Shown: positions 269 to 17,456 of the stretch, piece by piece
Position numbering within the stretch: position 1 is the stretch's first letter
Layout: each line of letters begins with the position of its first letter
From: Terriglobales bacterium
GTDB taxonomy: Bacteria; Acidobacteriota; Terriglobia; Terriglobales; Acidobacteriaceae
Direction: 5' to 3'
Assembly (NCBI GenBank): GCA_024281115.1
Contig: JAMXLI010000006.1
Span: 1 to 61,427, forward strand
DNA length: 61,427 nt
The notes under the pieces: generated by a model
Told to the model about the DNA's origin: nothing
Databases searched by the model: none
Seen by the model: the letters and a program-made list of their open reading frames with translations, nothing else
Program-made: the position numbers and the translations under genes

Positions 269-1303
269 TCAAGCCGGAACGGCAGTAGCCTTTTGTTTGA
301 CCTCCACCGGCTGGAGGAACTTCATCATGCCGCGAAGTTGCGCGCCCACCCGCTCCAGCACCTGTTCCTGCTCGCTCGCGCGCCGCGCCTCGAACCATTC
401 GCGCCCGGAACGGTTCTCCGCAATCCACTGCTTCGCGTAAGTGCCGTCCTGGATTTCGCGCAGCATCTGGCGCATGGTGGCGCGCGTTTGCTCGGTGATG
501 ACGCGCGGGCCGCCGGTGTAGTCGCCGTGCTCGGCGGTATCGCTCACCGAGTAGCGCATGTAGTTGAGCCCGCCCCGGTACATCAGGTCCACGATGAGCT
601 TCAGTTCGTGCAGGCATTCAAAGTAGGCAATTTCCGGCTGATACCCCGCTTGCACCAGGGTTTCAAAGCCCGCTTTCACCAGTTCGCTGACCCCACCGCA
701 GAGCACCGCCTGCTCGCCGAACAGGTCGGTTTCCGTTTCCTCGGCGAAGGTGGTCTCAATCACTCCCGCCCGGGTGGCGCCCAGCGCCTTGGCGTAAGAG
801 AGCGCCAGCGCTCTGGCTTTTCCGCTCGAGTCCTGGTGGATGGCCAGCAGCGCCGGTGTGCCGCCGCCTTCGACGAACACCTCGCGCACGCGGTGGCCCG
901 GCGCCTTGGGCGCGATCAGGCTCACGTCCACGTCCGGCGGGGAGGCAATCGTGCCGAAGCGAATGTTGAAGCCGTGCGCGAACATCAGGGTTTTTCCGGC
1001 ACTCAGGTGCGGCCGGATGTGTTGCGCATAGATTTCGGGCTGGCTGGTGTCCGGCGCGAGCACCATGACGACGTCGGCCCAGCGCGCCGCCTCCGCCACC
1101 GTGGTCACGCTCAGTCCGGCCGCCTGCGCGCGCGCCCGCGACGGGCTGAACTCGTGCAGGCCTACCTTCACGTTTACCCCGCTGTCCTTGAGGTTCAGCG
1201 CGTGCGCGTGGCCTTGGGAGCCGTACCCGATAATGGCCACCTTTTTTGTGCGAATCAGCGCCAGGTCAGCGGCGTCGTCGTGGTAAATCGTTGCCATAAT
1301 CAT
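269..1303 (-). CDS. ilvC: Ketol-acid reductoisomerase
   Basis: 344 aa. [22 protein letters not shown] is a Rossmann motif, and the protein is IlvC-like along its full length. It is the last gene of the ilv cluster. Confidence 0.97.
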
Positions 1304-1322
1304 GCCTCGCTTTCATTGTCCT

Positions 1323-1874
1323 TCAGACGGAATAGGAAATTTCGCCGGCGGCCGCGGCTGCAGCCAGTCCGGAGGTAGGGCGTTCGCTCACGGCCGGGCG
1401 GTAACCCCGCCGCATGGCGACGCGCCCGGTGCGCACAATCTCCAGCACGCCGTAGGGCGCGAGCACCTGCAACAAGCCTTCAATCTTGTCTTCAGTGCCG
1501 GTAATTTCGACGATCATCGAGTCCGGCGAGACGTCGCTCACCTTGGCGCGGAACACGCGCACCAGGTCCATGATGTGCGAGCGCTCGGACGCGGTAGCCG
1601 CCACCCGCACCATGGCGAGTTCGCGGAAGACCGCCGGCTGCTCGGTCACGTTCTCCACCAGCAGCACGTTAATCAGCTTGTACAGGTGCGCCTCAATGCG
1701 GCGGGCGCCGAATTCGTCGGTGTCCACCACGATGGTCATGCGCGAGACGCCGGTTTTCTCGGTCGTGCCCACGGTCAGCGAGGTAATGTTGAAGGCGCGC
1801 CTCCGGAACAGCGAGGCCACGCGCGTCAGCACGCCCGGCTTGTCTTCCACGTACACCACGAAAGTGTTGAGCAT
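1323..1874 (-). CDS. ilvN: Acetolactate synthase small (regulatory) subunit
   Basis: 183 aa. The N-terminus VEDKPGVLTRVASLFRRRAFNITSLTVG matches an ACT domain. The gene sits between ilvB and ilvC. Confidence 0.95.
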   Translation of the reverse strand: MLNTFVVYVEDKPGVLTRVASLFRRRAFNITSLTVGTTEKTGVSRMTIVVDTDEFGARRIEAHLYKLINVLLVENVTEQPAVFRELAMVRVAATASERSHIMDLVRVFRAKVSDVSPDSMIVEITGTEDKIEGLLQVLAPYGVLEIVRTGRVAMRRGYRPAVSERPTSGLAAAAAAGEISYSV

Positions 1875-1880
1875 AGGTCC

Positions 1881-3605
1881 TTACCCGTCCTCGGCCGTTT
1901 CCACCAGCACGCTGGGCCGCCGAATCATCGCGTGCAGGTCCGCGCCCGCCGGTACCATGGGGTACACCGAATCTTCCTGCTCCACCTGGAAGTCGAGCAG
2001 TGCGGGTCCGTCGTGCTGGCGCGCCTGCTGGATGGCGGCCTCTACTTCCTGGCGCTGCCGCACGCGGGTGGCGCGCAGTCCGAAAGCCTCGGCGAGCTTG
2101 ACGAAATCCGGATTGAGCAGCGGGGTGGACTGGTAGTTGCGGTCGTAGAAGAATTCCTGCCACTGCCGCACCATTCCGAGATAGCCGTTGTTGATGACCG
2201 CGATGTGGATCTTCAGCTTCTCCTGTACCAGGGTGGCCAGCTCGGGCATGGTCATCTGGAAGCCGCCATCGCCCACCACCACCCACACCTCGGCCTGGGG
2301 GCGCGCCACCTTGGCGCCGATGGCTGCGGGCAACGCAAAGCCCATGGTGCCGAGACCTCCGGACGTGATGAGCGAGCGCGGCGATTCGTGGTGGTAATAC
2401 TGCGCCTCCCACATCTGGTGCTGGCCCACATCGGTGACGATGAGCGCCTGGCCCTGGGTCGCGCGCCACAGGTCATGGATCACGTGGGCGGCATACAGGT
2501 GGCCGCTGTCGGGCAGGTTCTGGATGTCACGCACCGAGGAGTCGCCTTTCAGCGCGCGCAGCCGCTCCAGCCACTCGCCGTGCTCGGCGCCCTGCAGATC
2601 GCGCAGCAGGTTGCGCAGGACCTGGCGAACGTCACCCACCAGGGCTACATCCACCTTCACGTTCTTGTTGATCTCCGAGGGATCAATGTCCACGTGGATT
2701 TTGCGGGCGCGCGCGGCATACGTCCTAAGGTTGCCGGTGACGCGGTCGTCGAAGCGCATGCCCAGCGCAATCAGCAGGTCGGCTTCCTGGATCATGGTGT
2801 TGACCCAGGCTTCGCCGTGCATGCCCATCATCCCCAGGTTCAGGGCATGGGAGGCGGGCAGCGCGCCCAGTCCGAGCAGCGTCAGCGCCACCGGAATGTG
2901 CGCGCGTTCGGCGAAGGCAAGCAGTTCGGCGCTGGCCTGCGCCACCAGGATTCCGTGCCCGGCGAGGATCACGGGCCGGCGCGCGCCGCGAATCAATTGC
3001 AGCGCCTGCTCGTACTCGGCGCCGCTGGGCGAGAGATCGGGCCGGTAGCCCGGGAGCTGGGGAGCGGCCGCTTCCCAGTCGAACTCGCAGGACGACTGCT
3101 GCGCGTCCTTGGTGATGTCAATGAGCACGGGCCCGGGCCGCCCCGACTGCGCGATATAAAAAGCTTCCCGCACGGTGCGGGCGATGTCGCCGGCGTGCGT
3201 CACCAGGTAGTTGTGCTTGGTGATGGGCAGTGTGATGCCGGTGATGTCGGTTTCCTGGAACGCGTCGGAGCCGATCAAGCGGCTGCCCACCTGCCCGGTG
3301 ATGCAGACGATGGGAGAGGAGTCCATCATGGCGGTGGCGATTCCGGTCACCATGTTGGTGGCTCCCGGCCCGGAGGTGGCGATGGCCACGCCAATGCCGC
3401 CGCTGGCCCGCGCGTACCCGTCGGCCATGTGGGTGGCGCCCTGCTCGTGCCGCACCAGCACGTGGTGAATTGCCGAGTGGCGCAAGGCATCGTAGGCGGG
3501 CAGGATGGCGCCCCCGGGATAGCCGAAGACGTGCCGTACGCCTTCGCGCTCCAGGCATTCCCACAGGATTGCCGCGCCCGTTTTCTTTTCCAGAGCCATG
3601 CTCAT
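1881..3605 (-). CDS. ilvB: Acetolactate synthase large (catalytic) subunit, ThDP-dependent
   Basis: 574 aa. Contains the ThDP motif GGLGTMGFALPAAIGAK...GDGGFQM and an AHAS-like N-terminus. Confidence 0.95.
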   Translation of the reverse strand: MSMALEKKTGAAILWECLEREGVRHVFGYPGGAILPAYDALRHSAIHHVLVRHEQGATHMADGYARASGGIGVAIATSGPGATNMVTGIATAMMDSSPIVCITGQVGSRLIGSDAFQETDITGITLPITKHNYLVTHAGDIARTVREAFYIAQSGRPGPVLIDITKDAQQSSCEFDWEAAAPQLPGYRPDLSPSGAEYEQALQLIRGARRPVILAGHGILVAQASAELLAFAERAHIPVALTLLGLGALPASHALNLGMMGMHGEAWVNTMIQEADLLIALGMRFDDRVTGNLRTYAARARKIHVDIDPSEINKNVKVDVALVGDVRQVLRNLLRDLQGAEHGEWLERLRALKGDSSVRDIQNLPDSGHLYAAHVIHDLWRATQGQALIVTDVGQHQMWEAQYYHHESPRSLITSGGLGTMGFALPAAIGAKVARPQAEVWVVVGDGGFQMTMPELATLVQEKLKIHIAVINNGYLGMVRQWQEFFYDRNYQSTPLLNPDFVKLAEAFGLRATRVRQRQEVEAAIQQARQHDGPALLDFQVEQEDSVYPMVPAGADLHAMIRRPSVLVETAEDG

Positions 3606-3620
3606 TTCTTCCTTGTGTCC

Positions 3621-5297
3621 TTACCCGGTGACGGCCCCGTGGGCAGCCGACGACACCTGGCGGGCGTATTTGGCGAATACGCCTCCGGGATAGCGCGGCG
3701 CGGGAGGCTTCCAGGCTTGCAGCCGTTCGGCGACCTGCGCGGGATCCACTTCCAGGCGTAACTGCCGGTGGGCGATATCGATGGCGATGCAATCGCCGTC
3801 GCGCACCACCGCGATAACGCCACCGCTGGCCGCCTCGGGCGCAATGTGGCCGATCATCAGCCCACGCGTCGCGCCGGAGAAGCGGCCATCGGTGATCAGC
3901 GCCACCGATTCTCCCAGTCCCGCTCCCGCCAGCGCCGCGGTCACCGCCAGCATCTCGCGCATCCCGGGACCGCCGCGCGGGCCTTCGTAGCGGATGAGGA
4001 TCACGTCGCCGGCGCGGATCTGGTTGCGCTCCAGCGCAGAGAACGCCGCTTCCTCGGAATCGAACACGCGCGCCGGTCCGCGGAAACCATCGCCATGGTG
4101 GTGCGCGATCTTGAGCACGCATCCTTCCAGGGCCAGGTTGCCGCGCAGGATGGCCAGGCCCCCGGTCGGGCTCAGCGGATTCGACAGCGGCCGTACGACT
4201 TCCTGGCCGGGCGTCTCGCTCGCGGACGCAGCCTCTTCCTCCAGCGTGCGCCCGGAAACGGTGCGGGCGCTGCCCTGCAGGCAGCCCGCCTCGCGCAGGC
4301 GCGCCGCCAGCAAGCGCGTTCCGCCGGCGTGGTACAGGTCGGTGGCCATGAAGCGGCCCGCGGGCTTCAAATCCGCCAACAGCGGAACTTGCCGGCTGAT
4401 GCGGTCGAAATCGTCCATGCCGAGCTCCACTCCGCGCTCCGCGGCGATGGCTAGCAGGTGCAGGACGGCATTGGTGGAGCCCCCCGAGGCGCAAACACTG
4501 GCGATTGCGTTCTCCAGGGCCGCCCGGGTGATGATGCCGCTGGGCCGCAGGTCGCTCCGGTACAGCTCCATCACCTGCGCTCCCGCCTGCCGGCACACTT
4601 CGTTTTTGCGCTCGCAGGCGGCAGGCACGCTGGCGCTGCCCATGGGGGAGATGCCCAAAAACTCGCCCACCATCGCCATCGTATTGGCGGTGAACTGGCC
4701 GCCGCAGGCGCCGGCGCCGGGACAGGCCGCGTCTTCCAGCTCCGCCAGCTCGGCATCGCTCATCGCCCCGCGAGCGTGCGCTCCCACCGCCTCGAAAACG
4801 TCCTGGATGGAAACGTGCTTGCCCCGGAATTGCCCCGGCGCAATCGACCCTCCATAGATCATGAGGGAAGGTATGTCCAGCCGGCAGAGCGCCATGATGG
4901 TCCCGGGCAGGGTCTTATCGCAGCCGGCCAGCGCCACCATGCCGTCGAAGCAGTTGCCCCGGCCCACCAGCTCAATGGAGTCGGCGATGATTTCGCGGCT
5001 CACCAGGGAAGCGCGCATGCCCTCGGTCCCCATGGTGATCCCGTCGGAAATGGAAACGGTGTTGAATTCGAGCGGTGTGCCGCCCGCCTCGCGCACGCCC
5101 CGCTTGATGTGTTCGGCGAGCTCGCGCAGATGAAGATTGCAGGGCCCGATTTCCGTCCAGGTGTTGGCAATGCCGATCAGCGGTTTCTCCAGGTCGGCGC
5201 GGCTGAAGCCGGCGGCGTGCAGCATGGCGCGCGCGGGCGCGCGGCGATTGCCCTCCACCAGCACAGCGCTGCGTTTTGGCGACCTTTCCGGGGGCAT
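3621..5297 (-). CDS. ilvD: Dihydroxy-acid dehydratase
   Basis: 558 aa. Contains IlvD/Edd signatures: [17 protein letters not shown] and [11 protein letters not shown]. Confidence 0.95.
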
Positions 5298-5868: not shown

Positions 5869-7169
5869 TGCCTTCCGGCCATAAACTGCTGGCCCGCGAA
5901 CACCTGGCGGCGTTCGTGCTGGTGACTGCCCTGTTCTTTTTGTGGGGGATCCCCAACAACCTCAACGATGTGCTGATCAAGCAGTTCATGAAGTCATTCG
6001 AGATCACCCGGCTGAAGGCCGGGCTGGTGCAATCGGCCTTCTACTTCGGATACTTCGTGCTTTCCCTGCCGGCAGCGCTGACCATGCGCCGTTTCGGCTA
6101 CAAGACCGGCCTGGTGACCGGCTTATTTCTTTACAGCGCGGGCACGCTGCTGTTCTGGCCGGCGGCGCTGATCCGCAGCTATAGCTTCTTTCTCTTCGCG
6201 CTTTTCGTGATCGCCAGCGGGCTGGCGTTCCTGGAGACGGGGGCGAATTCCTTCATCGCGCAGCTGGGCGATCCCGCCAGCTCGGAACGGCGGCTCAATC
6301 TCGCCCAGGCATTCAACCCGCTGGGCTCGATTGCGGGAGTGCTGATCGGCACGGCATTCATTTTTTCCGGGGTGGAGCTCACGGCCGGCCAGGTGAATGG
6401 GCTCAAAGCCAGCGGCGCCTATGACGCTTATTTGCAGCATGAAACCGTGCGCGTCATCCGCCCCTACCTCGCCTTGGGCTGCGCCGTGCTGCTGTGGGCC
6501 CTCCTCATACTGCGTACGAAATTTCCCTCCGTCGGCTACGAGGGAACCTCAGCCGCGAGGCGGGCGGGAAATTTCGCTGAACTATTTCGCCATTCCCACT
6601 TCGTCCAGGCCGTCATCGCGCAGTTCTTCTACGTGGGCGCGCAGGTGGGTACCTGGAGTTACTTCATCCAATACGTGCAGGACTACGTTCACCAGCCGGA
6701 GAAAGTGGCCGGCTACTTTTTGACCGGGACTCTGGTGGCCTTCGGAGTGGGAAGATTTACCGCTACGTATCTGATGAAGTTTGTCGCGCCCAATCGCCTG
6801 ATGGGCAGCTACGCGCTGATCAACATCGGGCTGGTGGGGCTGGCGGTGCTGTTTCCAGGATGGACCGGCGTGTGGGCGATTTTTCTTACCAGCTTCTTCA
6901 TGTCGCTGATGTTCCCCACCATTTTCGCGCTGGGGTTGAAAGGTCTGGGTCCCCAAACCAAGCTGGGCGGATCCCTGATCGTGATGGCGATCATCGGAGG
7001 GGCGGTATTCACGCCGCTGATGGGCCTGGTGTTTGAGATCACGCGCAGCATGGCGCTCGCGATGCTGGTCCCGCTGGCCTGCTACGTCTTTATCGCCTAC
7101 TTTGCCTGGATCGGCTCCGCCGTGCGGCTCCCCGCCCGCATGGCTACGCCCTCGGTTGAATCGGCTTGA
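5868..7169 (+). CDS. fucP: L-fucose:H+ symporter permease (MFS)
   Basis: 433 aa with 12 predicted TM helices. Contains the FucP signature FFLWGIPNNLNDVLIKQFMKSFEITRLKAGLVQSAFYFGYF. Confidence 0.9.
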   Translation: MPSGHKLLAREHLAAFVLVTALFFLWGIPNNLNDVLIKQFMKSFEITRLKAGLVQSAFYFGYFVLSLPAALTMRRFGYKTGLVTGLFLYSAGTLLFWPAALIRSYSFFLFALFVIASGLAFLETGANSFIAQLGDPASSERRLNLAQAFNPLGSIAGVLIGTAFIFSGVELTAGQVNGLKASGAYDAYLQHETVRVIRPYLALGCAVLLWALLILRTKFPSVGYEGTSAARRAGNFAELFRHSHFVQAVIAQFFYVGAQVGTWSYFIQYVQDYVHQPEKVAGYFLTGTLVAFGVGRFTATYLMKFVAPNRLMGSYALINIGLVGLAVLFPGWTGVWAIFLTSFFMSLMFPTIFALGLKGLGPQTKLGGSLIVMAIIGGAVFTPLMGLVFEITRSMALAMLVPLACYVFIAYFAWIGSAVRLPARMATPSVESA

Positions 7170-7171
7170 GC

Positions 7172-10100
7172 ATGCCCGGCCCAGCGCAACCCTGGGACTA
7201 CCTGATCCTCACCGCCGCCCACCCACGCCAGGCCGCCGCCTACTCCGAGCAATTGCGGCTGCGCTGCGACCTGGGACGCTTGCCGCAGGTGCGCCAATGG
7301 TTGTGCGTGCCCGATCCTGAGGGGCAGCGCATCGGTAGCGGCGGCAGCACCCTCGAATGCCTGCGGGACGTGGTGACGCGGGAACTGCTGGCGGGCGCCG
7401 GAAACGCGGGACAGGTGGAGGAAGTCTTCCGGCGAAAGCGCATCCTGATTGTCCACGCGGGCGGCGACTCGCGCCGCTTGCCCGCGTACTCAGCCCTGGG
7501 GAAGATTTTTGTTCCTCTGCCGGGAGACGATTCGTCGGCGCTGCCGCTCACCCTGTTTGACCAACTGGTGCCTCGTTTCCTGGCGCTGCCTTCAACGCAA
7601 CTGGAAGCCGGCCAGATCGTTGTCGCCACGGGTGACGCGCTCATTGAATTCAATCCGGAAGCACTCGACCTGGCCCGGCCCGGCATCAACGTGCTCGCTG
7701 CATATTCCGCGCCGGAAGAGGCTGCCAGGCACGGCGTGTTCTGCGCGGGAGCAGACCGGCAGCTGCGCCTTTATCTGCAGAAGCCCGCTCCCGAGCGGCA
7801 ACGCCAAGCCGGTGCGCTCGACAAGGAGGGCCGCGCCGCGCTCGACCTCGGGGTCATGAGCTTCGATGCGGCTACGGCGCTCCGCTTGCTCCGGGCGTTC
7901 TGCCATCGCGCCGACGACCAGGCTGGGCAGGGAAGCCCTCTGGTCTGGGACCAGGATGCGCTCGCAATTATGCGCACGCGCGGCCTCGATCTTTACCGCG
8001 AAATCTCGTGCGCATTGGGAAGCGAGGCGAACCTGGAGCACTATGCTTACTCCCTGAGCGCCGCCGGGAGCAGCTTGATCAGCCCCGAACTGCTGCGCAA
8101 GTGGTTCGCCGCACTCAACCCTATCCCTGTAAGCGTGCACCTCGTCGATCCTTGCCGCTTTCTGCACTTTGGAACTACTCGCCAGCTCATCAGCAGCGGC
8201 CAGGCGTCGGACGAGGAGGGCGCGCGCGGCCGCCGCGCCGTCATCGTCAACTGCGAGGTGACGGGCGACGGAGAGGTAAAAGGAACCGACGCCTGGCTGG
8301 AGGGGTGCCGCGTGCACGCGCCGCTCGCGCTGCCGGGGCAGAATGTTGTTATCGGGCTGGATGTGGACGTCCCGCTGCAGCTTCCCGCCGGCTCCTGCCT
8401 GGATGTAACACCCGGCCTGTCGCGAACCGGCCAACCGATCTTTTTTGTCCGCTGCTGCGGGGTGGATGACGACTTCAAGCAATCGCTCGCGGGCGATGCA
8501 AGGTTCTGCGGAATCGAGCTGGACGAATGGATGCGGAACGCCGGCGTTACACCGGAGCAGACCTGGCCGGCAGATATTGCGGCGGGCGAGCGCTCCTTGT
8601 GGAACGCGCGCCTGTTTCCCGCCGAAACTCGCCCGGAAGACTTTCTGCGCTGGTTGTGGATGTGGGACGTGGTCCGCGCCACCCCCGGCGACAAGCGGGC
8701 CTACGCCGCAGCGGACCGCTACAGCTGCGCGGAAATCGCCCTGCTCGCCGACAACGAACAGTTTCACCGCCGCCGCTATGCCATACGCGCACGCCACATC
8801 CGCCGCCGCGGCTCCTCCATGTTTGCGGTTTCCAGCGGTTTCTCCGCGCGCGACCTGGCGTTCGCGCTGGAACATGCGGAAGACCGGGCCGGAATGGCCG
8901 CCGATGTTTTCGCCTTGGCCGCTCCCGCGCAACCTGACCGGCGTGGAGAGGGCGACGCCCTCACGCGCTGCCGGATTGCGCATTCGCTGGCCGCGGCGTT
9001 GCGGCTGCTGGCCGCGCGCTCCATCGAAATCGATCTTCCCCGTGGCGCGCTTTCCATTCCCGATCCTGGAGACGCTTCGCCCGGGATGCCGGACGATCCT
9101 CCCGCTCGCTTGCGCCGCTACGCCTTCGAGCTTTTGGCGCAGGCGATCGTCGGCGGAGCCGCTGAGCCTGTGCCCATTCCTCGCCGCTCCTTGCGGCCGG
9201 ACGAATGCGTTTGGGGGCGCGCGCCGGCGCGCATTGAGTTAGGCGGCGGCTGGACGGATACGCCCCCTTACACGCTGGAATTCGGCGGGCATGTCACCAA
9301 TGTGGCCATCAATCTGAATGGGCAGCCTCCCATTCATTGTTACGCTCGAATCACCCCCGATCCCGTGGTTCGCCTGCACTCCACCGATTCCGGCCGGCAC
9401 CTGGAAATCACGCGACTGGAGCAGTTGCTGGACTACCGCAGGCCGGGTGATCCCTTTGCGCTAGCCAAGGCTGCCCTGGCCCTTTCCGGCTTCTCCCCGG
9501 ATTTCGCCCCCTGGCCGGCGGGCGCGACGCTGCCAACCATGCTGGCGGAATTCGGCGGCGGCATCGAGCTGACGACGCTGGTTGGAATCCCCCAGGGCAG
9601 CGGCCTGGGAACCTCGAGCATCCTGGGCGCGGTCATTCTGGCGGTGGTACAGCGCATGTGCGGAAGAGAGTTCCGCCGGCGCGAGTTGTTTCACGACGTG
9701 CTTCGGCTGGAGCAGGCGCTCACCACCGGCGGCGGCTGGCAGGACCAGGTGGGCGGATGCGTGGGCGGCTGCAAGATTACCGCGACCTTGCCCGGCCTCG
9801 TCCCAGATCCGGTGATGGAAGCGCTGCCCAGCACCGTTCTCGATCCCCAGACCAATGGCGGATGCACGCTGCTCTACTACACGGGACTCACCCGCCTGGC
9901 CAAGAACATCCTGCAGGAAATTGTGGGCGCCTGCCTGGACCGCGAACCTGCCATCATGACTGCCCTGGCACAAGAGCACGAGGTGGCGCAGGCCATAGCG
10001 GGGGCCTTGCGCCAGAACGACATGGCCGGGTTGGGCGCGGGGCTGGATGCCGCCTGGGAGTTGCAGAAGCGCCTGTGCGGCGTGGTGACTAATCCGGAGA

Positions 10101-10309
10101 TTGAATCGCTGCTGCGACGGGTACGCCCGCACGTGCACGGCATGCGGATTTCCGGGGCAGGCAGCGGCGGCTTTCTGCTGCTGGTCTGCAAGTCACCGCA
10201 GGATGCCGGCGAGGTGCGCGCGCGCCTCGAGCAGGAGCCGCTCAACCCGCGCGCGCGTTTTTTCGAATTCAGCGTCAATCACGCCGGGCTGGAAGTCACC
10301 GCCTGCTGA
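7172..10309 (+). CDS. fkp: Bifunctional L-fucokinase / fucose-1-phosphate guanylyltransferase (Fkp-like)
   Basis: About 1045 aa. The N-terminus is a nucleotidyltransferase-like fucokinase domain. The C-terminus is a GHMP kinase (GGGWTDTPPY, PQGSGLGTSSILGA, GAGSGGF). ATG at 7172 is preferred over the in-frame TTG at 7166. Confidence 0.85.
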   Translation: MPGPAQPWDYLILTAAHPRQAAAYSEQLRLRCDLGRLPQVRQWLCVPDPEGQRIGSGGSTLECLRDVVTRELLAGAGNAGQVEEVFRRKRILIVHAGGDSRRLPAYSALGKIFVPLPGDDSSALPLTLFDQLVPRFLALPSTQLEAGQIVVATGDALIEFNPEALDLARPGINVLAAYSAPEEAARHGVFCAGADRQLRLYLQKPAPERQRQAGALDKEGRAALDLGVMSFDAATALRLLRAFCHRADDQAGQGSPLVWDQDALAIMRTRGLDLYREISCALGSEANLEHYAYSLSAAGSSLISPELLRKWFAALNPIPVSVHLVDPCRFLHFGTTRQLISSGQASDEEGARGRRAVIVNCEVTGDGEVKGTDAWLEGCRVHAPLALPGQNVVIGLDVDVPLQLPAGSCLDVTPGLSRTGQPIFFVRCCGVDDDFKQSLAGDARFCGIELDEWMRNAGVTPEQTWPADIAAGERSLWNARLFPAETRPEDFLRWLWMWDVVRATPGDKRAYAAADRYSCAEIALLADNEQFHRRRYAIRARHIRRRGSSMFAVSSGFSARDLAFALEHAEDRAGMAADVFALAAPAQPDRRGEGDALTRCRIAHSLAAALRLLAARSIEIDLPRGALSIPDPGDASPGMPDDPPARLRRYAFELLAQAIVGGAAEPVPIPRRSLRPDECVWGRAPARIELGGGWTDTPPYTLEFGGHVTNVAINLNGQPPIHCYARITPDPVVRLHSTDSGRHLEITRLEQLLDYRRPGDPFALAKAALALSGFSPDFAPWPAGATLPTMLAEFGGGIELTTLVGIPQGSGLGTSSILGAVILAVVQRMCGREFRRRELFHDVLRLEQALTTGGGWQDQVGGCVGGCKITATLPGLVPDPVMEALPSTVLDPQTNGGCTLLYYTGLTRLAKNILQEIVGACLDREPAIMTALAQEHEVAQAIAGALRQNDMAGLGAGLDAAWELQKRLCGVVTNPEIESLLRRVRPHVHGMRISGAGSGGFLLLVCKSPQDAGEVRARLEQEPLNPRARFFEFSVNHAGLEVTAC

Positions 10310-10356
10310 GCCGGCAGCCGCAACCCTGGTGGGGGGAGTGTTGGATCGTTATTCAC

Positions 10357-10385
10357 TTGACTTGTTGAACAGTTGAATGTACTTT
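10357..10385 (+). promoter_or_regulatory. Sigma70-like promoter candidate for the GntR gene
   Basis: TTGACT (10357-62), a 17-nt spacer, then TACTTT (10380-85), in a locally AT-rich stretch. Confidence 0.35.
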
Positions 10386-10399
10386 GGCGCCCCCAAAGT
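10381..10399. promoter_or_regulatory. Inverted repeat (candidate GntR operator) overlapping the -10 element and transcription start
   Basis: ACTTTGG-CGCCC-CCAAAGT, with perfect 7-bp arms. It ends 7 nt before the ATG at 10406. Confidence 0.3.
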
Positions 10400-10405
10400 C
10401 TGCGC

Positions 10406-11092
10406 ATGGAACGCGCTCAGATCAACCGGGTGAGTGTCGCCGACCAGGCCGCCGCCATCCTGCGGCAGCGCATTCTCAACGGCGAGCTGCGGCCCGGGAC
10501 CCCCTTGCAGGAGATTCCGCTGGCCGCTTCCCTGGGCGTCTCCCGCAACACCATGCGCGAGGCGGTGCGCATCCTCTGCCTCGAGGGCCTGCTGGTGCGC
10601 AGCGCTCACCGCGGCGTAGCCGTGGAGCGCCTCACCGCGCGCGATGTGCGGGAGATCTATCACTTGCGGCGCATGCTCGAGATCAGCGCCGTGGTGGCCA
10701 CGCGCAAAGCCGATCCCGCGGTTCTCAAGGAGCTGCAGCTCGCGCTGCAGCAGTACGAACAGGCGGTGCGCAACCGCGACTGGCTCACCGCCGTGGGCCA
10801 CGATTTGCACTTCCACACCCTGCTGATTCGCTTTCTCAAGAACCGCCGGCTGGAGGCGTTTTACCGCAAGGTGATCGGGGAATTGCGCATGGGCATGGTG
10901 CTGGTGGACCGCAGCCACGACGATCCTGTCGGGCTGGTGCCCGTGCATCGCAAGGTGTACCAGCTGTTGCTGGCGGGCAAGAACAAGCAATGCGCCGAGG
11001 TTCTGGCCCGCCACCTGGAGGATTCCGAAGCCCGGATCAGCCAGATTGTGGCCCAGACCGCGGCGTCCAAGACCAGCAGCCTCGCGCAGTAG
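10406..11092 (+). CDS. GntR family transcriptional regulator (FadR/FCD subfamily)
   Basis: Winged-HTH LQEIPLAASLGVSRNTMREAVRILCLEGLL plus a helical FCD-like C-terminus. ATG at 10406 is preferred to TTG at 10373, which falls inside the putative promoter. Confidence 0.85.
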   Translation: MERAQINRVSVADQAAAILRQRILNGELRPGTPLQEIPLAASLGVSRNTMREAVRILCLEGLLVRSAHRGVAVERLTARDVREIYHLRRMLEISAVVATRKADPAVLKELQLALQQYEQAVRNRDWLTAVGHDLHFHTLLIRFLKNRRLEAFYRKVIGELRMGMVLVDRSHDDPVGLVPVHRKVYQLLLAGKNKQCAEVLARHLEDSEARISQIVAQTAASKTSSLAQ

Positions 11093-11149
11093 GCGCAGGC
11101 GGGACGCCCTGAGAGTGCCTGGCCAGGAAAAAATGCAAGGAGCAACCAC

Positions 11150-14100
11150 ATGAGGCAGATGCTGAGAAACCTGAAGTCCCACCTGCTGGCCACTCGGCCG
11201 CGCAAGGCTCGCTTCCGCAGCGGTATTCTGACCGTGCTGCTGGCAGCAGGTTGGCTCCCCCTGTTCACCCTGAGCGCGAATGCGCAGGTAACGACGGTGG
11301 CGGTGCAGGGCAGGGTTTACGATTCGACCGGGGCGGCCATCTCCGGCGCCGATGTGACCGCTGCCAATGCGGCCACCGGCATCACGCGCAACGTAAGCGC
11401 GTCTCCTACCGGCGACTACATCATTTCCACGCTGCCTCCCGGCGACTACACCGTGACCGCCGAAAAGGCGGGTTTCCAGAAACAAGCTAAAAGGATCCAG
11501 CTGCAGATCGGCGCCGCCGCCAGCCTGGACTTCACCCTCGCACCCGGGCAGGTGACGCAGCAAGTGAACGTGGAAGACGTGGGCGAGGTGGCGGAGCCTA
11601 CCCGCACCATGATCAGCTCAGTGATCTCGCAGACCGAGATCCACGACCTGCCGGTGAACGGCCGCCAGTTCATTGATTTCGCCCTGCTGGCGCCCGGCGT
11701 CACCATCGGCGACACCACGTCGGGCAGCACCGACGTGATCATCGAGCCGGTGACCAAGCTCTCCTTTGCCGGCCAGAACATTCACTACAACTTCGTGGCC
11801 ATTGACGGAGCGGACAACATGTCCACCGCCTCCGGGATCCAGAAGACCACGCCGTCGCAGGACGCGGTCAGCGAATTCCGCGTGATTAACACGGATTACA
11901 GCGCCGAGTTCGGGCGCGCCGTAGGCGGCATTGTCAACATCATCACCAAGAGCGGCACCAACGATTTTCACGGTTCAGTGTACGAGTTTTTCCGCCATGA
12001 CCGCATGGACGCCAAGAACGCGCTGGCCGCCGCCGGAGGCTTCAACAAGCTGCGCCAGAACCAGTTTGGCGTCACCCTGGGCGGTCCCATCGTCAAGGAC
12101 AAGACCTTCATCTTCGCCAACTATGAGGGCCAGCGGCACAGCGAATCGCCGTTCTACAACTCGACTGTGCTGCAGAACATCGCGGCGATCAATGCGGTGA
12201 AGGTCAACACCTTTGGCCTGCCGCCGGAAAACCTGTTCGTCACCCGCACCATCAATTACGACAACTTCCTGGTGAAGCTCAACCACAACTTCAACCCGCA
12301 CAATTCCATGTTCGTGCGCTACTTCTTCAACGATAACCGCGCGACCAATCTCTCACCGCTCAACGATGGCTTCGACCTGCCCTCCGGCTTCAAGAACAAC
12401 AATTTCCGCGACCAGTCCATCGTCGGGAACCTGACCTCGGTGATTTCCAGTTCCCTGGTCAACCAGGTCAGCCTGCAGTATGCGCACCGGTTTTTTGATT
12501 TCCCGACCACCAGCACGCAGCCCCACCTTGAGGTCTCGAACGTGTTCACGCTGGGCGTAAACCGCGGCAACCCGGATTTTTACGAGGAAGGCCGCTTCGA
12601 GATCGTGGACAGCGTGACCAAGACCCTGGGCCGCCATACCCTGATGTTCGGCGGCGACTATAACCACGTGAACACCACCGAGTCCTTTCCTTTGTTCTAT
12701 CCCTTCGAAGCGGACTTCGGCAGCCTCAACGCTTTCCTGGGCACCGATTTTGTGGGCGCTCCCCATCCCTTCGTGATCTTCTTTGAGCGCTTCGACAAGG
12801 CTTCCGGATTCAACGAGCCCTCGTTCAGCACCTCGGTCTACCAGGGCAGCGCCATCCCATCGGCGGTGCGCAACGAAGCCCGGGGCGAACTGGGCCACAC
12901 CTACCAGGGCGCGTTCATCCAGGACAAATGGCGGGTAAGTAACAACCTGACGCTCAACTACGGGCTGCGCTGGGAAGGCGAGAACTGGCCGAAGGCCGCC
13001 ATCAACAGCCCCAACAAGAATTTCGATCCGCGCGCCGGCTTTTCCTATGCGCTGGGAACTTCGCGCAACCTGGTGCTCCGCGCCGGCGGCGGCTTGTTTC
13101 ACGGTACCATTCCGTCGCCGCTGCTGATGTGCCAGTTGCCTTCCTGCGGGGGCGTGATCGGCAAGTTTCCGGGCCGCGAGAACATCCAGGACAACCTGAA
13201 TGCCAACACCCGGCTTTCCGCTTTCGGGGCGGACCCCTTCACCATGGCCACCGCTTTCTCACAAATGGTGGGCCCGGGCCTGGCCACGGCCACGTATCCG
13301 GCGGGGTCGCTCGACGCCACCATCGTGCGCTTCGCGCAGAACCACAAGCCCCCCTACGGCGCCCAGGTAAGCGCGAGCCTCGAGTTCCAGCCGACCCGCG
13401 ACACGGTGGTGGACATCACCGGGCTGCACGTGCGCAGCATCCATCTGGGCAGCTTCTACAACGTGAATCAGCCCAACCCCAGCGGCCAACTACCGTTCCA
13501 CGACTCGCGCGGCGACCTCGGCCTGAAGAACATGTATTGCGCCAACTTCCCCTGCTTCCCGCCGGTGATCGCGCCGGGCGTGCGCTGCGCGGTGTTTACC
13601 GGCTGCCCGGTCCCGCCCGGTTTCCTGGGCTTCGCCGTGGATTTCGAAGCGGACTCGCGCTGGGATGCGCAGTGGGACGGCCTGCTAATCACGTTCAACA
13701 AGCGGGTGACGCACCATTTCGGTTTCGGCACCAGTTACACCTGGGGCAAGGGAATCGACGACGGCCCCAATCCCAGCTTTGTGTTGATCCCGCAGGACAG
13801 CTCCAACTTCCGCGCCGAGCGCGCCATCTCGGCGGACTACGTCAAGCACCGCTTCGTGGGCAATGCCACCTTTACCGGGCCGGAGCACATGAACGCTGTG
13901 GTGAACGGATGGCAGCTGGGGCTCATCATGACCTTCGAATCGCCCCACTACTTCACCAAGTTTGCGGGCTTCGATGCCAACGGCGACATTTTCGGCAACA
14001 ACGACCGCGTGGGCATCGAGCCGCGCAACACCTTCCGGGGCGACACCTACCAGACCATCGACCTGCGGGTGTCGCGGACCTTCGCGGTGAAGGAGCGCAC

Positions 14101-14323
14101 CCGGCTGGAGGCCCTGGTGGAAGCCTTCAACCTGTTCAATACCCTGAATGTGCACTACTACAACACGGCGTATGGGGCTTCCGACTTCTGCCCGGCGGGC
14201 GGCCCCACGTACTGCGGCACCGGTCCGTTTTACATCGAGGGCTCTCCCAACCCCTCCTACGGGACGCCGCGCGCATTATTCAATCCGCGCCAGTTGCAGC
14301 TGGCCTTGCGCCTGACGTGGTAA
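11150..14323 (+). CDS. TonB-dependent receptor with N-terminal carboxypeptidase-regulatory-like domain
   Basis: 1057 aa with a signal peptide. CarboxypepD_reg-like GRVYDSTGAAISGADVTA...GDYTVTAEKAGF, then plug and barrel, ending in a terminal aromatic (LRLTW). AAGGAG RBS. Confidence 0.85.
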   Translation: MRQMLRNLKSHLLATRPRKARFRSGILTVLLAAGWLPLFTLSANAQVTTVAVQGRVYDSTGAAISGADVTAANAATGITRNVSASPTGDYIISTLPPGDYTVTAEKAGFQKQAKRIQLQIGAAASLDFTLAPGQVTQQVNVEDVGEVAEPTRTMISSVISQTEIHDLPVNGRQFIDFALLAPGVTIGDTTSGSTDVIIEPVTKLSFAGQNIHYNFVAIDGADNMSTASGIQKTTPSQDAVSEFRVINTDYSAEFGRAVGGIVNIITKSGTNDFHGSVYEFFRHDRMDAKNALAAAGGFNKLRQNQFGVTLGGPIVKDKTFIFANYEGQRHSESPFYNSTVLQNIAAINAVKVNTFGLPPENLFVTRTINYDNFLVKLNHNFNPHNSMFVRYFFNDNRATNLSPLNDGFDLPSGFKNNNFRDQSIVGNLTSVISSSLVNQVSLQYAHRFFDFPTTSTQPHLEVSNVFTLGVNRGNPDFYEEGRFEIVDSVTKTLGRHTLMFGGDYNHVNTTESFPLFYPFEADFGSLNAFLGTDFVGAPHPFVIFFERFDKASGFNEPSFSTSVYQGSAIPSAVRNEARGELGHTYQGAFIQDKWRVSNNLTLNYGLRWEGENWPKAAINSPNKNFDPRAGFSYALGTSRNLVLRAGGGLFHGTIPSPLLMCQLPSCGGVIGKFPGRENIQDNLNANTRLSAFGADPFTMATAFSQMVGPGLATATYPAGSLDATIVRFAQNHKPPYGAQVSASLEFQPTRDTVVDITGLHVRSIHLGSFYNVNQPNPSGQLPFHDSRGDLGLKNMYCANFPCFPPVIAPGVRCAVFTGCPVPPGFLGFAVDFEADSRWDAQWDGLLITFNKRVTHHFGFGTSYTWGKGIDDGPNPSFVLIPQDSSNFRAERAISADYVKHRFVGNATFTGPEHMNAVVNGWQLGLIMTFESPHYFTKFAGFDANGDIFGNNDRVGIEPRNTFRGDTYQTIDLRVSRTFAVKERTRLEALVEAFNLFNTLNVHYYNTAYGASDFCPAGGPTYCGTGPFYIEGSPNPSYGTPRALFNPRQLQLALRLTW

Positions 14324-14387
14324 ACCGTTTTTCGGGGCGGAGTGTATCCCGCCCCGCCCTCCCCCTTTGGATTCGACGGAGAGCACC

Positions 14388-15471
14388 ATGCGCTTCGGCA
14401 TTTACTGCGAGATGCAGTCCCCGCCGGGCAAATCGCATTACGACTTGACCTGGGAAATCATGCGCCAGATCGAGCACGCCGATGCGGTGGGCTTCGACGT
14501 GTACTCCATCATCGATCATCACTTCTTTCCCAAATTTTCCATCTCGGCGAATCCGCTGGCCATGTTCGCGGCCGCCGCGCAGCGCACGCGCCGCATCCGC
14601 TTTCGGACGGCGCTGCACACACTGCCGCTGGAGAATCCCATGCGCCTGGCCGGCATGATTGCCGAAGCCGACATCCTGACCGGCGGCCGGCTGGAGTGCG
14701 GGCTGGGACGCGGCCATGCCTGGCTGTTCGCTCCGTCCGCGCTGCCGCTGGAGGAAAGCCGGCCGCGTTACAACGAGGCCATCGACATCCTGGAACTGGC
14801 TTTTACCAAGGAGAAATTCTCTTACGACGGCCAGTTCTACAAGATCAAGGACGTAAGCGTGGTCCCGCAGCCGCTGCAGAAACCGCATCCCAAGTTCTAC
14901 ACGGGGGGCACCAGCGATGTGACCTACCAGATGGCGGGCGAGAGAGGCTGGGGCATTTTCGTTCCGCCCCTGCTGCCCTGGAAGGTGCTGGAGGCGCCGC
15001 TCAACATTTACAAGAAAGCCTGCGCCGCCCGCGGCCATACTCCCGACATCGTCTACATCCGCCCCGTTTACCTGGACGAAGACGAAAAACTCGTGCGCAA
15101 GGAAGTGGAAACGGCGCTGCACAATTTTCTGGCGTTCAACGCGTCGCCGGTCGATTCCCTGCAAGAAGAGGCGGTGAAGGCGGAGCTGCGCGCCAAGGGA
15201 TATGGCTTTTATGCCAGCGGGGGCCCTGGAATCGCTCACCCGGCTCCGTTACGAGGAGATCGTGGAGCAGGAGATCGGCTTCATCGGCACCCCCGACAAG
15301 GTGGTGCGCCAGGTTCGCGATCTGCAGGCGAAAGGCGGGATTGGCGAATTAGCCATCGTGGCCAACTTCGGCGGGCTGGAGCATTGGAAAAGCATCAAGA
15401 CCCAACAGTTGTTCGCCCAGCACGTGATGCCCGCATTCCGCCAGCAGGGCACTCCGGCCGCGGCGGACTAG
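14388..15471 (+). pseudogene. LLM-class (luciferase-like) flavin-dependent oxidoreductase, interrupted by a +1 frameshift in a G5 run
   Basis: The N-terminal 277 codons are in the frame of ORF 14367..15560. The family-typical C-terminus (ALESLTRLRYEEIVEQEIGFIGTPDKVV...FAQHVMPAFR) is in ORF 15202..15471. Deleting one G at 15219-15223 joins them as ...YASGALESLT.... Length is 3n+1. Confidence 0.8.
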
Positions 15472-15546
15472 CGAAGGCAAACGCGAGATGGCGGACTCAT
15501 GTGTGTATGGGAAAGTACAGTAGCTGCCAACCAGGTGAAGGGGACG

Positions 15547-15759
15547 ATGCCTATTCTTAAGTTCGGTGCTCTCACTTGCGCGATCTATTTGCTAATCATC
15601 CTGTTGCTTGAGCTCGGAACGGTCTTTGTCGCGCGTCTGTTTGGAGGGGTGATTTTAGGCGGCCGGCCTTGGGGGATTGCTGTGTTCTTTGCCTCCATCT
15701 GGCTTTTGTCGTATTCCATTGCTCAGTATGCGTTTCGGTTTCCTCCCATTAGCCGTTAG
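15547..15759 (+). CDS. Small hydrophobic protein (2 TM), hypothetical
   Basis: 70 aa starting MPILKFGALTCAIYLLIILLLELG.... AAGGGG lies 4-9 nt upstream. The gene is markedly lower in GC than its neighbours. An alternative in-frame ATG is at 15499. Confidence 0.4.
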   Translation: MPILKFGALTCAIYLLIILLLELGTVFVARLFGGVILGGRPWGIAVFFASIWLLSYSIAQYAFRFPPISR

Positions 15760-15870: not shown

Positions 15871-16971
15871 ATGGCGATCGGAACCATAACCAGCGCGCCC
15901 GCCCATTCCTTCGCGCCCATGAGCGCGCAGCGGCTGCTGGTATTTGGCGGGATCGCATTGATCGTGGGCGGCATGCTGTTCGGCGACATTTTTGCCGTTT
16001 TTGTGCTGCACCAGAATGCCGGCAGCACAGGCGCGGCTTTGCTGGCGGCGGCGCAGGCGGCGGCGGCGCGCCAACCGGCGCAGGTGCGCGACATCTTCAG
16101 CGGCGTCGGCGGATTGCTGGAGGACCGCGGGACCAAGGTGGACGCGCACGTCCACATGACCGATGGCGGCTACCTGGCGCTCCTGCTGGCCCTGGTGCAG
16201 CCTTACGTGGCCTTTTCCCCGCAGCGCAAGAAGCTGCTGGCACGCTTATTTCTGGCCGGGGGAGTCTTTTTGCCGGTTGGGATCTTCCTCATCCACTATG
16301 TCGGGCTGGCCCACAGCCCTTCGCCCGTCATCGGGTGGGCCAGCGTGCTGGCTGATTTTGCGGGGGCGCTGATGATCATCGCCCTCGTCGCCGAAGGCTG
16401 GGGACTGGCGCGGTGCCTGCGCGCAGGTTTTCCGGGCACCCAACCTACGGCAGCGAAGGATTCCTGGTGCGAGCGCACATTGCTGGCCGGCGGCACCGCG
16501 CTGATTTTGATCGGATTTCTGTTCGGCGCCTGGTACTCGGCCCGCGATCTCTATCGGCAGGAAACCGAGGAAGGGCACATCCTGGGCTCGTTGGCAGCCG
16601 CCGCAGCGAGCGCCCGTGCCGCCGACCTGCCTGATCGAGTGAATGCCTTCGGCATGCTGCAGGCCGACAAAGCGGTCAAGATTGCCGCCCATTCCCACAT
16701 CATTGAGTTCGGAATCCTGGCCACCCTGCTGGCCTTCGTTCAGCCCTATGTATTCCTGAGCGAGCGGTGGCGGAGGCGCTGGGTTGTGCTCCTGCTGGCC
16801 GGTTCGGTGGTTTTGCCTGTTTTTGTCCTGCTGGAACTGCGGCTGGGACTGCTGGCGGGCGGCATTGCCGATGGCGGCGGCCTTCTCGTCATCCTTGCGC
16901 TGGTCGGGATGCTAGTCGGAGTCGTGAGATATAGCGGGCGCGCCGACGCGGAGTTGGAGCCGGTGGAATGA
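15871..16971 (+). CDS. Integral membrane protein made of two tandem ~165-aa four-TM modules with an AHxH motif; no recognised family
   Basis: 366 aa. The two halves align (LLALVQPYVAFSPQRKK vs LLAFVQPYVFLSERWRR; KVDAHVH vs KIAAHSH). An alternative start is at 15919 (MSAQRLL). The stop overlaps the next start (ATGA). Confidence 0.6.
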   Translation: MAIGTITSAPAHSFAPMSAQRLLVFGGIALIVGGMLFGDIFAVFVLHQNAGSTGAALLAAAQAAAARQPAQVRDIFSGVGGLLEDRGTKVDAHVHMTDGGYLALLLALVQPYVAFSPQRKKLLARLFLAGGVFLPVGIFLIHYVGLAHSPSPVIGWASVLADFAGALMIIALVAEGWGLARCLRAGFPGTQPTAAKDSWCERTLLAGGTALILIGFLFGAWYSARDLYRQETEEGHILGSLAAAAASARAADLPDRVNAFGMLQADKAVKIAAHSHIIEFGILATLLAFVQPYVFLSERWRRRWVVLLLAGSVVLPVFVLLELRLGLLAGGIADGGGLLVILALVGMLVGVVRYSGRADAELEPVE

Positions 16972-17456
16972 GCGTCGCGCGCAAACTGCTCCTCTTCGGC
17001 GGCTTGGGTTTGGCGGCCGTGGGCATGCTGTACGGCCTCTATTACGCGCTGTTTGGCGAACACCAGGCGCTGGGGGCCATGGGCGGCCATCTTACAGGTG
17101 CGTTCGTGAGCGCAGCGCAACGCGAGCCGGCGCAGAGCCAAGCGGCAATCGCCTCGTATGCTGCCGCACGATACAGGTACGTGCGCCAGGTAGACGCGCA
17201 CTCCCACTGGATCGGACTGGCCATGCTGCTGATCGTGCTGGGAGCGGCTTTCGACCGGGTCGCATTTTCCGATCGCACGCGCCTGCTGATCGCCACCGGG
17301 CTGCTGTCGGGTTCCGTTGTCTTTCCTGCCGGCGTCATCCTGCAAACCTGCGCGTGCGCCGCGGCGACCGCCACCGCCCTGGCTATCCTGGGCGCCGGAC
17401 TGGTCACCGCGTCGCTGGCGCTGACGCTGGTTGGGTTCTTGCGCTCTCCGGCGTGA
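16968..17456 (+). CDS. Integral membrane protein, single copy of the same four-TM AHxH module
   Basis: 162 aa. KLLLFGGLGLAAVGMLYG...QVDAHSHW...VAFSDRTRLL aligns with both repeats of the upstream gene. It is translationally coupled to that gene. Confidence 0.6.
   Translation: MSVARKLLLFGGLGLAAVGMLYGLYYALFGEHQALGAMGGHLTGAFVSAAQREPAQSQAAIASYAAARYRYVRQVDAHSHWIGLAMLLIVLGAAFDRVAFSDRTRLLIATGLLSGSVVFPAGVILQTCACAAATATALAILGAGLVTASLALTLVGFLRSPA

Follow-up and report, generated by a model that had tools for sequence, protein, structure and literature searches.

Three copies of a four-helix membrane module in two overlapping acidobacterial genes and their probable remote relationship to styrene oxide isomerase

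The 61,427-nucleotide stretch of contig JAMXLI010000006.1 from a Terriglobales bacterium (Acidobacteriaceae), referred to here as the window, carries two overlapping genes, ORF A and ORF B, that together encode three copies of one module with four transmembrane (TM) helices. ORF A contains modules 1 and 2, and ORF B corresponds to module 3; each module has a single His-x-His (HxH) motif at the start of its second helix. Profile and structure comparisons point to a probable distant kinship of the module with styrene oxide isomerase (SOI, StyC), and we propose that the products of the two genes form a haem-binding membrane protein. The genes and their main features are as follows.

15871-16971, forward strand: ORF A, 366 amino acids, carrying modules 1 and 2
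16968-17456, forward strand: ORF B, 162 amino acids, which is module 3
16968-16971, forward strand: ATGA overlap of the ORF A stop and the ORF B start, indicating translational coupling
15919-16440, forward strand: module 1, residues 17-190 of ORF A
15934-16008, 16165-16215, 16246-16308 and 16345-16410, forward strand: TM1, TM2, TM3 and TM4 of module 1
16441-16968, forward strand: module 2, residues 191-366 of ORF A
16480-16542, 16708-16758, 16783-16854 and 16873-16926, forward strand: TM1 to TM4 of module 2
16986-17054, 17208-17252, 17283-17348 and 17376-17441, forward strand: TM1 to TM4 of module 3
16147-16155, forward strand: HxH of module 1, H93-V-H95 of ORF A
16690-16698, forward strand: HxH of module 2, H274-S-H276 of ORF A
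17199-17207, forward strand: HxH of module 3, H78-S-H80 of ORF B
15982-15984, forward strand: TM1 glycine of module 1, G38 of ORF A, an invariant column in an alignment of 52 module sequences
16525-16527 and 17034-17036, forward strand: the equivalent glycines, G219 of ORF A and G23 of ORF B

Translation of ORF A possibly begins at a later ATG, at 15919, as conservation among the homologues sets in only at the sequence MSAQR. The ATGA overlap and the aligned blocks quoted in a first-pass annotation of this stretch are present in the sequence, and the motif ranges given there are right apart from beginning one or two codons into the heptapeptides that they accompany.

Triplication and conservation of the module

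The proposal of the first-pass annotation that three copies of one four-helix module are spread over two coupled genes is borne out by formal comparison. With ORF A split at residue 190, Smith-Waterman scores are 216 for modules 1 and 2 (z=30), 180 for modules 1 and 3 (z=19) and 123 for modules 2 and 3 (z=14), as opposed to scores of about 35-40 +/- 6-7 in 500 shuffles. A tblastn search of the host genome with ORF B finds this locus alone, matching module 1 with E=3.4e-14 and module 2 with E=2.1e-7, and hhalign comparisons between the alignments of the three module types give probabilities of 99.7-99.9% (E of 1e-26 to 1e-36). The triplication is real and formally significant, and the three modules are diverged paralogues that share 28-35% identity.

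The His pair, seen at first only in the three copies of the window, is kept in essentially every copy among the homologues. Two-module homologues (n=237) contain exactly two HxH motifs in 230 cases, one in 3 and three in 4; at least one motif is found in 170 of 171 single-module homologues, and one per module in all 15 fused homologues. In the 52-sequence alignment, which includes all module types at 20-50% identity, the only invariant columns are the TM1 glycine and the two histidines. A third His, one turn ahead of the invariant pair, is frequent in module 3, where it gives HxHxH (for example, EVHFHGH) instead of DxHxH; examples are the distant single-module homologues P0133, P0139, P0155, P0170 and P0179 and module 3 of P0152.

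The division into a two-module and a one-module gene recurs elsewhere, with a 4-nt (A/G)TGA overlap between the two genes in 42 of the 42 split loci examined. In 15 clusters the modules are fused into a single chain of 520-566 amino acids that contains all three modules and all three HxH motifs, and in one distant lineage (locus L112, 4935-6519) they are encoded by three separate overlapping one-module genes of 198, 164 and 172 amino acids. Modules 1, 2 and 3 are adjacent and in unchanged order in 52 of 52 positive genomes. That the order stays the same wherever the gene boundaries fall strongly supports one three-part working unit, and the pseudo-trimer that had been raised as a question is the likely assembly, given that the modules always occur together.

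The family is large and uncharacterised, with thousands of sequence clusters: more than 2,800 homologous clusters were found for ORF A and about 1,600 for ORF B, nearly all of them annotated as 'hypothetical'; only a few have a source name, which is then Terriglobales or Acidobacteria. With ORF B as the query, 194 clusters at 50% identity were found among 1.8 billion representatives; the family is abundant, including in soil metagenomes, and its diversity is not very high. When genomes were sampled, 2 of 301 from the phylum carried the genes, as did 52 of 301 from the window's family (34 of 142 genera), which is about one sixth of the genomes of this one acidobacterial family. The literature search found no mention of the family in the papers retrieved.

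AlphaFold2 predicts ORF B with high confidence (pLDDT 96.5) as helices 3-50, 54-97, 102-125 and 129-159. The model of the fused homologue P0123, which is about 57% identical to ORF A and 38% identical to ORF B, has a pLDDT of 85.3 and a pTM of 0.85, with four long helices per module. In these models, extensions of TM1 and TM2 form a helical hairpin about 45 residues long (residues 47-98 in module 1). The loops between TM2 and TM3 have a strongly basic character (QRKK, RWRRRW and DRTR), so by the positive-inside rule the hairpin and the HxH motif are expected on the periplasmic side. The motif, where TM2 begins, is thereby placed at the membrane boundary that faces the periplasm, a predicted position like that of His58 of SOI (PMC11374702).

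Probable relationship to styrene oxide isomerase

The first-pass annotation had been unable to assign the module to any family; profile searches, hhalign and Foldseek now all point to SOI. The enzyme from Pseudomonas sp. VLB120 is a homotrimer of 169-residue subunits with four TM helices, which binds haem b at the subunit interfaces through His58 (PDB 8PNU/8PNV; PMC11374702). Haem is required for its folding and trimer stability, and mutants of N64, D95, N99 and Y103 are impaired or inactive (PMC11374702). His58 enters the pocket of the neighbouring subunit, and N64, located at i+6 (about 240 degrees), lines the pocket of its own subunit.

When a HMMER profile of the full module was compared with PDB sequences, it matched protein A domains; these matches were false, arising from the Ala-rich periplasmic hairpin, and disappeared once the profile was cut to the part between the HxH motif and the module end. 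In a search of 177,635 PDB sequences, the top match of the cut profile is SOI (8pnu_G, E=0.044), and a second SOI, 30tw_A, is also among the matches. The first His of the HxH motif falls on residue 72 of the 8pnu_G chain, which, allowing for a 14-residue tag, is native His58; this numbering agrees with the translated styC of plasmid pSTY (A57-H58-S-G-P-A-L-N64) and with PMC11374702.

A comparison by hhalign of 52 modules with 49 SOI sequences gives a probability of 84.3% (E=7.2e-6) over 147 columns that cover all four helices, as opposed to 1.2% and 0.8% for reversed profiles and at most 1.6% for 30 column shuffles; with four SOI sequences the probability is 64.8%. In the hhalign register, G23, H78 and H80 of ORF B align with the SOI-invariant residues G24, H58 and G60, and AAHSH of module 2 aligns with RAHSG of SOI. 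The first His of HxH lies on His58 in all alignments. Precomputed matches of Pfam family PF26512 ('SOI') on relatives of the modules are weak for a gene of locus L117 and ungraded for homologues P0338 and P0389.

The predicted structure of ORF B likewise has SOI as its top Foldseek match (8pnu_A, probability 1.00, TM-score 0.61/0.63, root-mean-square deviation 4.3 A). The model of the fused homologue gave a different picture: its top matches are subunit I of cbb3, aa3 and bo3 oxidases and of qNOR (E from 3e-3 to 5e-2, probability up to 0.99), which would suit a 12-helix redox enzyme akin to subunit I of the haem-copper oxidases and nitric oxide reductases, with its three four-helix arcs and His ligands. 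We regard such a kinship as very improbable, since the TM-scores of these matches are only 0.17-0.23 with a root-mean-square deviation of about 23 A, no COX1 match is found in Pfam at E<=1, and a single module fits SOI far better.

SOI and the modules both have units of about 165 amino acids with four TM helices, a cytoplasmic N-terminus, a short basic loop between TM2 and TM3, a His where TM2 begins on the periplasmic side, a Gly in TM1 and three units per assembly, the last being a prediction in the case of the modules. The differences are equally clear. SOI is the product of one gene and forms a homotrimer, whereas the window encodes three diverged modules in a 2+1 gene arrangement. The invariant Gly60 of SOI is replaced by the second invariant His of the modules. 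Periplasmic loop 1 has 21 residues in SOI but is the helical hairpin of about 45 residues in the modules, whose periplasmic loop 2 is shorter. Since the SOI catalytic residues are absent, ORF A and ORF B do not constitute a styrene oxide isomerase. The module is probably related to SOI at the superfamily level only, as judged from sequence and predicted fold, and the function of SOI cannot be transferred to it.

Two further families, DUF8059 (PF26248) and Aq_1264_TM (PF27139), have faint or weak precomputed matches on members of the module family; both are uncharacterised, and we know their names from the precomputed tables only. A phmmer search of the PDB with ORF A gave only chance matches to sterol carrier protein.

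Predicted assembly and cofactor sites

We consider it reasonably likely that ORF A and ORF B together form a pseudo-heterotrimeric, SOI-fold membrane protein that binds haem b. They would make up an inner-membrane protein of 12 helices, built from three diverged copies of the SOI fold, in which the trimer is hard-wired by the joining of modules 1 and 2 in ORF A and the ratio to module 3 would be fixed by the ATGA overlap. By analogy with SOI, we infer that the three interfaces between modules would each hold one haem b, close to the periplasmic side of the membrane, with the first His of each HxH motif (H93 and H274 of ORF A, H78 of ORF B), at the position of SOI His58, as the putative axial ligand. 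The second His would lie on the other side of TM2, facing the pocket of its own module, roughly level with the iron. This placement is probable because of the helix geometry at i+2, comparable to that of SOI N64 at i+6, and the residue could serve either as a sixth haem ligand (bis-His coordination) or as a distal catalytic residue. The absence of the SOI distal residues suggests that the substrate and the reaction differ from styrene oxide isomerisation. The SOI fold would then have been reused in another way, with three non-identical modules that gene fusion and coupling keep together and a second invariant His at the predicted cofactor site. If haem binding proves true, the SOI fold becomes a superfamily, and the system offers a natural example of a homotrimer turned heterotrimer whose three sites can be altered one by one.

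The first-pass annotation had suggested the His pair as a metal or haem ligand. The histidines remain candidates for cofactor ligands, with haem favoured, but they cannot act as one chelating pair: in the models the motif lies on a continuous helix, where positions i and i+2 differ in direction by about 200 degrees, and both His of a motif therefore cannot bind the same centre. This geometry also bears on the idea that the protein binds or transports a metal ion (Cu, Ni, Zn or Fe) that the neighbouring TonB-dependent-type receptor would supply and that would be held by periplasm-facing histidines, namely the one at the end of TM1, the HxH pair and a His in TM3. A conserved His cluster does lie at the periplasmic boundary (H47, H93 and H95 in module 1; H32, H78 and H80 in module 3), and a gene for an outer-membrane receptor is found upstream in 39 of the 45 loci of our neighbour census, which comprised 40 loci from genomes of the window's family, the window itself and four metagenomic loci. 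With its two histidines on opposite faces of the helix, however, HxH could not chelate one ion; the His at the end of TM1 is not conserved in module 2, no metal-transporter family was matched in the Pfam or NCBIfam scans, and the sole relative found by sequence and by fold is a haem enzyme. A metal-binding or transport function thus appears rather unlikely.

Several observations weigh against the assignment to a haem-binding relative of SOI. No similarity score is significant alone (E=0.12 in the case of Foldseek, with the HMMER value given above), and hhalign probabilities for SOI drop to 42.6%, 67.9% and 11.9% when modules 1, 2 and 3 are compared one type at a time; these low values make the link to SOI probable but not certain. 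The residues N64, D95, N99 and Y103, which are invariant or near-invariant among the 49 SOI sequences, correspond to L84, G115, F119 and V123 of ORF B and are not conserved. The NCBIfam StyC model NF045734 (cut-off 150 bits) has no match in the window's genome at E<=10, an NCBIfam scan at E<=1 found no StyC match for ORF A or ORF B, and neither Pfam nor NCBIfam yielded a meaningful match when ORF A, ORF B and 39 homologues were scanned. As for the genomic context described below, the window has no adjacent molybdenum (Mo) hydroxylase, its gene for a luciferase-like (LLM) oxidoreductase reads as frameshifted, and the synteny comes largely from one bacterial family, so that shared descent may be part of its cause. 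Lastly, the ORF B model can be superimposed on the prostaglandin E synthase mPGES-1 (4al1, 5t36 and 4wab) with TM-scores of 0.41-0.61, reaching 0.55-0.61 at best.

That last match would fit a MAPEG-like enzyme, that is, a glutathione-dependent pseudo-trimer of four-helix subunits with active sites at the interfaces. The MAPEG enzymes (mPGES-1, MGST and LTC4 synthase) are four-helix homotrimers with interface active sites that use glutathione, not haem, and we know of no counterpart of the invariant HxH among them. Their sequences have no detectable similarity to the modules: no MAPEG match was found in Pfam at E<=1, and the family is absent from the sequence-profile matches in the PDB and ranks under SOI in Foldseek. 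A MAPEG-type function therefore seems highly unlikely.

Gene neighbourhood

The conserved neighbours of the module genes are listed below, with their frequency in the 45 loci of the census; coordinates are given for those that are present in the window.

10373-11092, forward strand: GntR/FCD regulator, in 31 loci
11150-14323, forward strand: CarboxypepD_reg / TonB-dependent-type outer-membrane protein, in 39 loci
14367-15471, forward strand: LLM oxidoreductase directly upstream of the modules, in two frames with a frameshift near 15219, in 33 loci
FAD subunit of the Mo-hydroxylase, directly downstream of the modules, in 36 loci
2Fe-2S subunit, in 36 loci
CoxG, in 35 loci
Mo subunit (xanthine-dehydrogenase-family Mo-hydroxylase), in 34 loci
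ApbA-like reductase, in 30 loci
M24 peptidase, in 27 loci
M20 peptidase, in 27 loci
F420 biosynthesis genes cofC/D/E/GH, divergent, in 22-24 loci

In a tblastn search with an intact orthologue, the LLM gene of the window is covered by two separate matches (14388-15224 and 15196-15465); the frameshift could be either a sequencing error in this metagenome-assembled genome or the mark of a real pseudogene. The cof genes (cofC, cofD, cofE and a radical SAM gene of the cofG/H type) are divergent and located upstream of the GntR gene (for example, L066 1-3858), and the neighbouring LLM enzyme may depend on F420 because they are found nearby in about half of the loci. They are absent from the window, which has fucose salvage genes in that place. 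The Mo large subunit and the FAD subunit score best with models of glyceraldehyde dehydrogenase and of proteins like carbon monoxide dehydrogenase, in both cases below the cut-off.

The break between the window and the gene order of its relatives falls exactly between ORF B and the gene for the FAD subunit. The genome does encode such a block, comprising the FAD subunit, 2Fe-2S subunit, CoxG, Mo subunit, ApbA, M24 and M20 genes, on another contig (C154, about 6092-13959, locus L111); it is 66-78% identical to the block of locus L002.

The envelope or redox stress context suggested in the first-pass annotation, on the basis of the LLM oxidoreductase, a BON protein, an ECF sigma factor and a small hydrophobic ORF, does not hold up in the census. 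The BON and ECF genes 3' of ORF B are not conserved neighbours. The small hydrophobic, low-GC ORF (15499-15759) has no counterpart in the relatives, where gaps of 80-240 nt contain no called gene, or anywhere in the census; it has the appearance of an insertion specific to the window rather than of an accessory subunit.

The Mo-hydroxylase block, including CoxG, that is located directly downstream of the modules in 34-36 of the 45 loci allows for another function, in which the modules are a cofactor-free scaffold of the SOI fold, for example a membrane anchor for the Mo-hydroxylase acting with CoxG, and the histidines are kept for packing. The loss of the SOI catalytic residues would agree with this role. 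On the other hand, two His and one Gly as sole invariants down to 20% identity make a pattern that suits ligands better than packing, the genes persist without the Mo block both in the window and in a subfamily coupled to a metallo-β-lactamase (MBL)-fold gene, and SOI itself needs haem to fold and to hold its trimer together. We accordingly find the scaffold function improbable.

For the haem-binding assembly, the order LLM gene, module genes and Mo-hydroxylase genes in most relatives suggests that a membrane-soluble intermediate of a catabolic pathway undergoes a haem-dependent step, with a logic like that of StyAB-StyC-StyD. In both arrangements, a gene of an oxidoreductase/monooxygenase family (here, LLM) and a gene for an SOI-fold protein are followed by a member of a family that includes aldehyde oxidisers (here, the Mo-hydroxylase). 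The partners are different, as no enzyme homologous to StyA, StyB or StyD is involved, none of styA, styB and styD being found in the neighbourhood of the modules, and the Mo-hydroxylase of the window's genome is on a separate contig. If haem binding is true, the modules would point to a membrane step in a conserved LLM and Mo-hydroxylase catabolic operon of common soil bacteria.

A more far-reaching proposal, which we put forward as speculative and on the unlikely side, is that the family represents a new class of tri-haem membrane enzymes. Gene triplication would have converted the SOI homotrimer into a pseudo-trimer without symmetry, in which two neighbouring modules would share each haem, one contributing its first His and the other its second. 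This enzyme might, in soil Acidobacteria, catalyse the middle step of a catabolic route in which LLM oxygenation, possibly F420-dependent, is followed by a haem-catalysed rearrangement in the membrane and then by oxidation of an aldehyde or heterocycle by the Mo-hydroxylase, a counterpart of styABCD assembled from unrelated partners. In a sister subfamily, the partner would be a secreted MBL hydrolase.

This second subfamily (loci L004, L112, L113, L114-116 and L117) is about 28-34% identical to ORF B and has the MBL-fold gene upstream; two genomes of the window's family carry it as an extra copy (L085 and L105). At 4 of the 5 junctions checked, the MBL stop lies beyond the module-gene start, with an overlap of 4-14 nt that indicates translational coupling; L112 has a 115-nt gap instead. 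The MBL proteins match models of the SoxH-related 'quinoprotein relay system zinc metallohydrolase' with E-values of 1e-39 to 1e-47, below the cut-offs, and clear signal peptides are present in 4 of the 5 examined. A secreted partner would fit a cofactor site near the periplasmic face. At L112, whose lineage is 33% identical, Mo-hydroxylase genes are found 3' of the modules, fragmented possibly by assembly errors, which shows that the association recurs outside the window's lineage.

Two ORFs in related loci (L065 6273-6924 and L003 6729-6917) were considered as extra modules and ruled out, as they encode unrelated soluble proteins. In the window, the forward-strand ORF at 1302-3761 was rejected as a Mo-hydroxylase because it has no Pfam match and one genuine gene in that region, a confirmed ketol-acid reductoisomerase gene at 269-1303, is encoded on the minus strand. 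The two long minus-strand ORFs at 1881-3605 and 3621-5297 resemble, in their sizes and order, two genes located near the fused homologue in L065, those for acetolactate synthase and dihydroxy-acid dehydratase.

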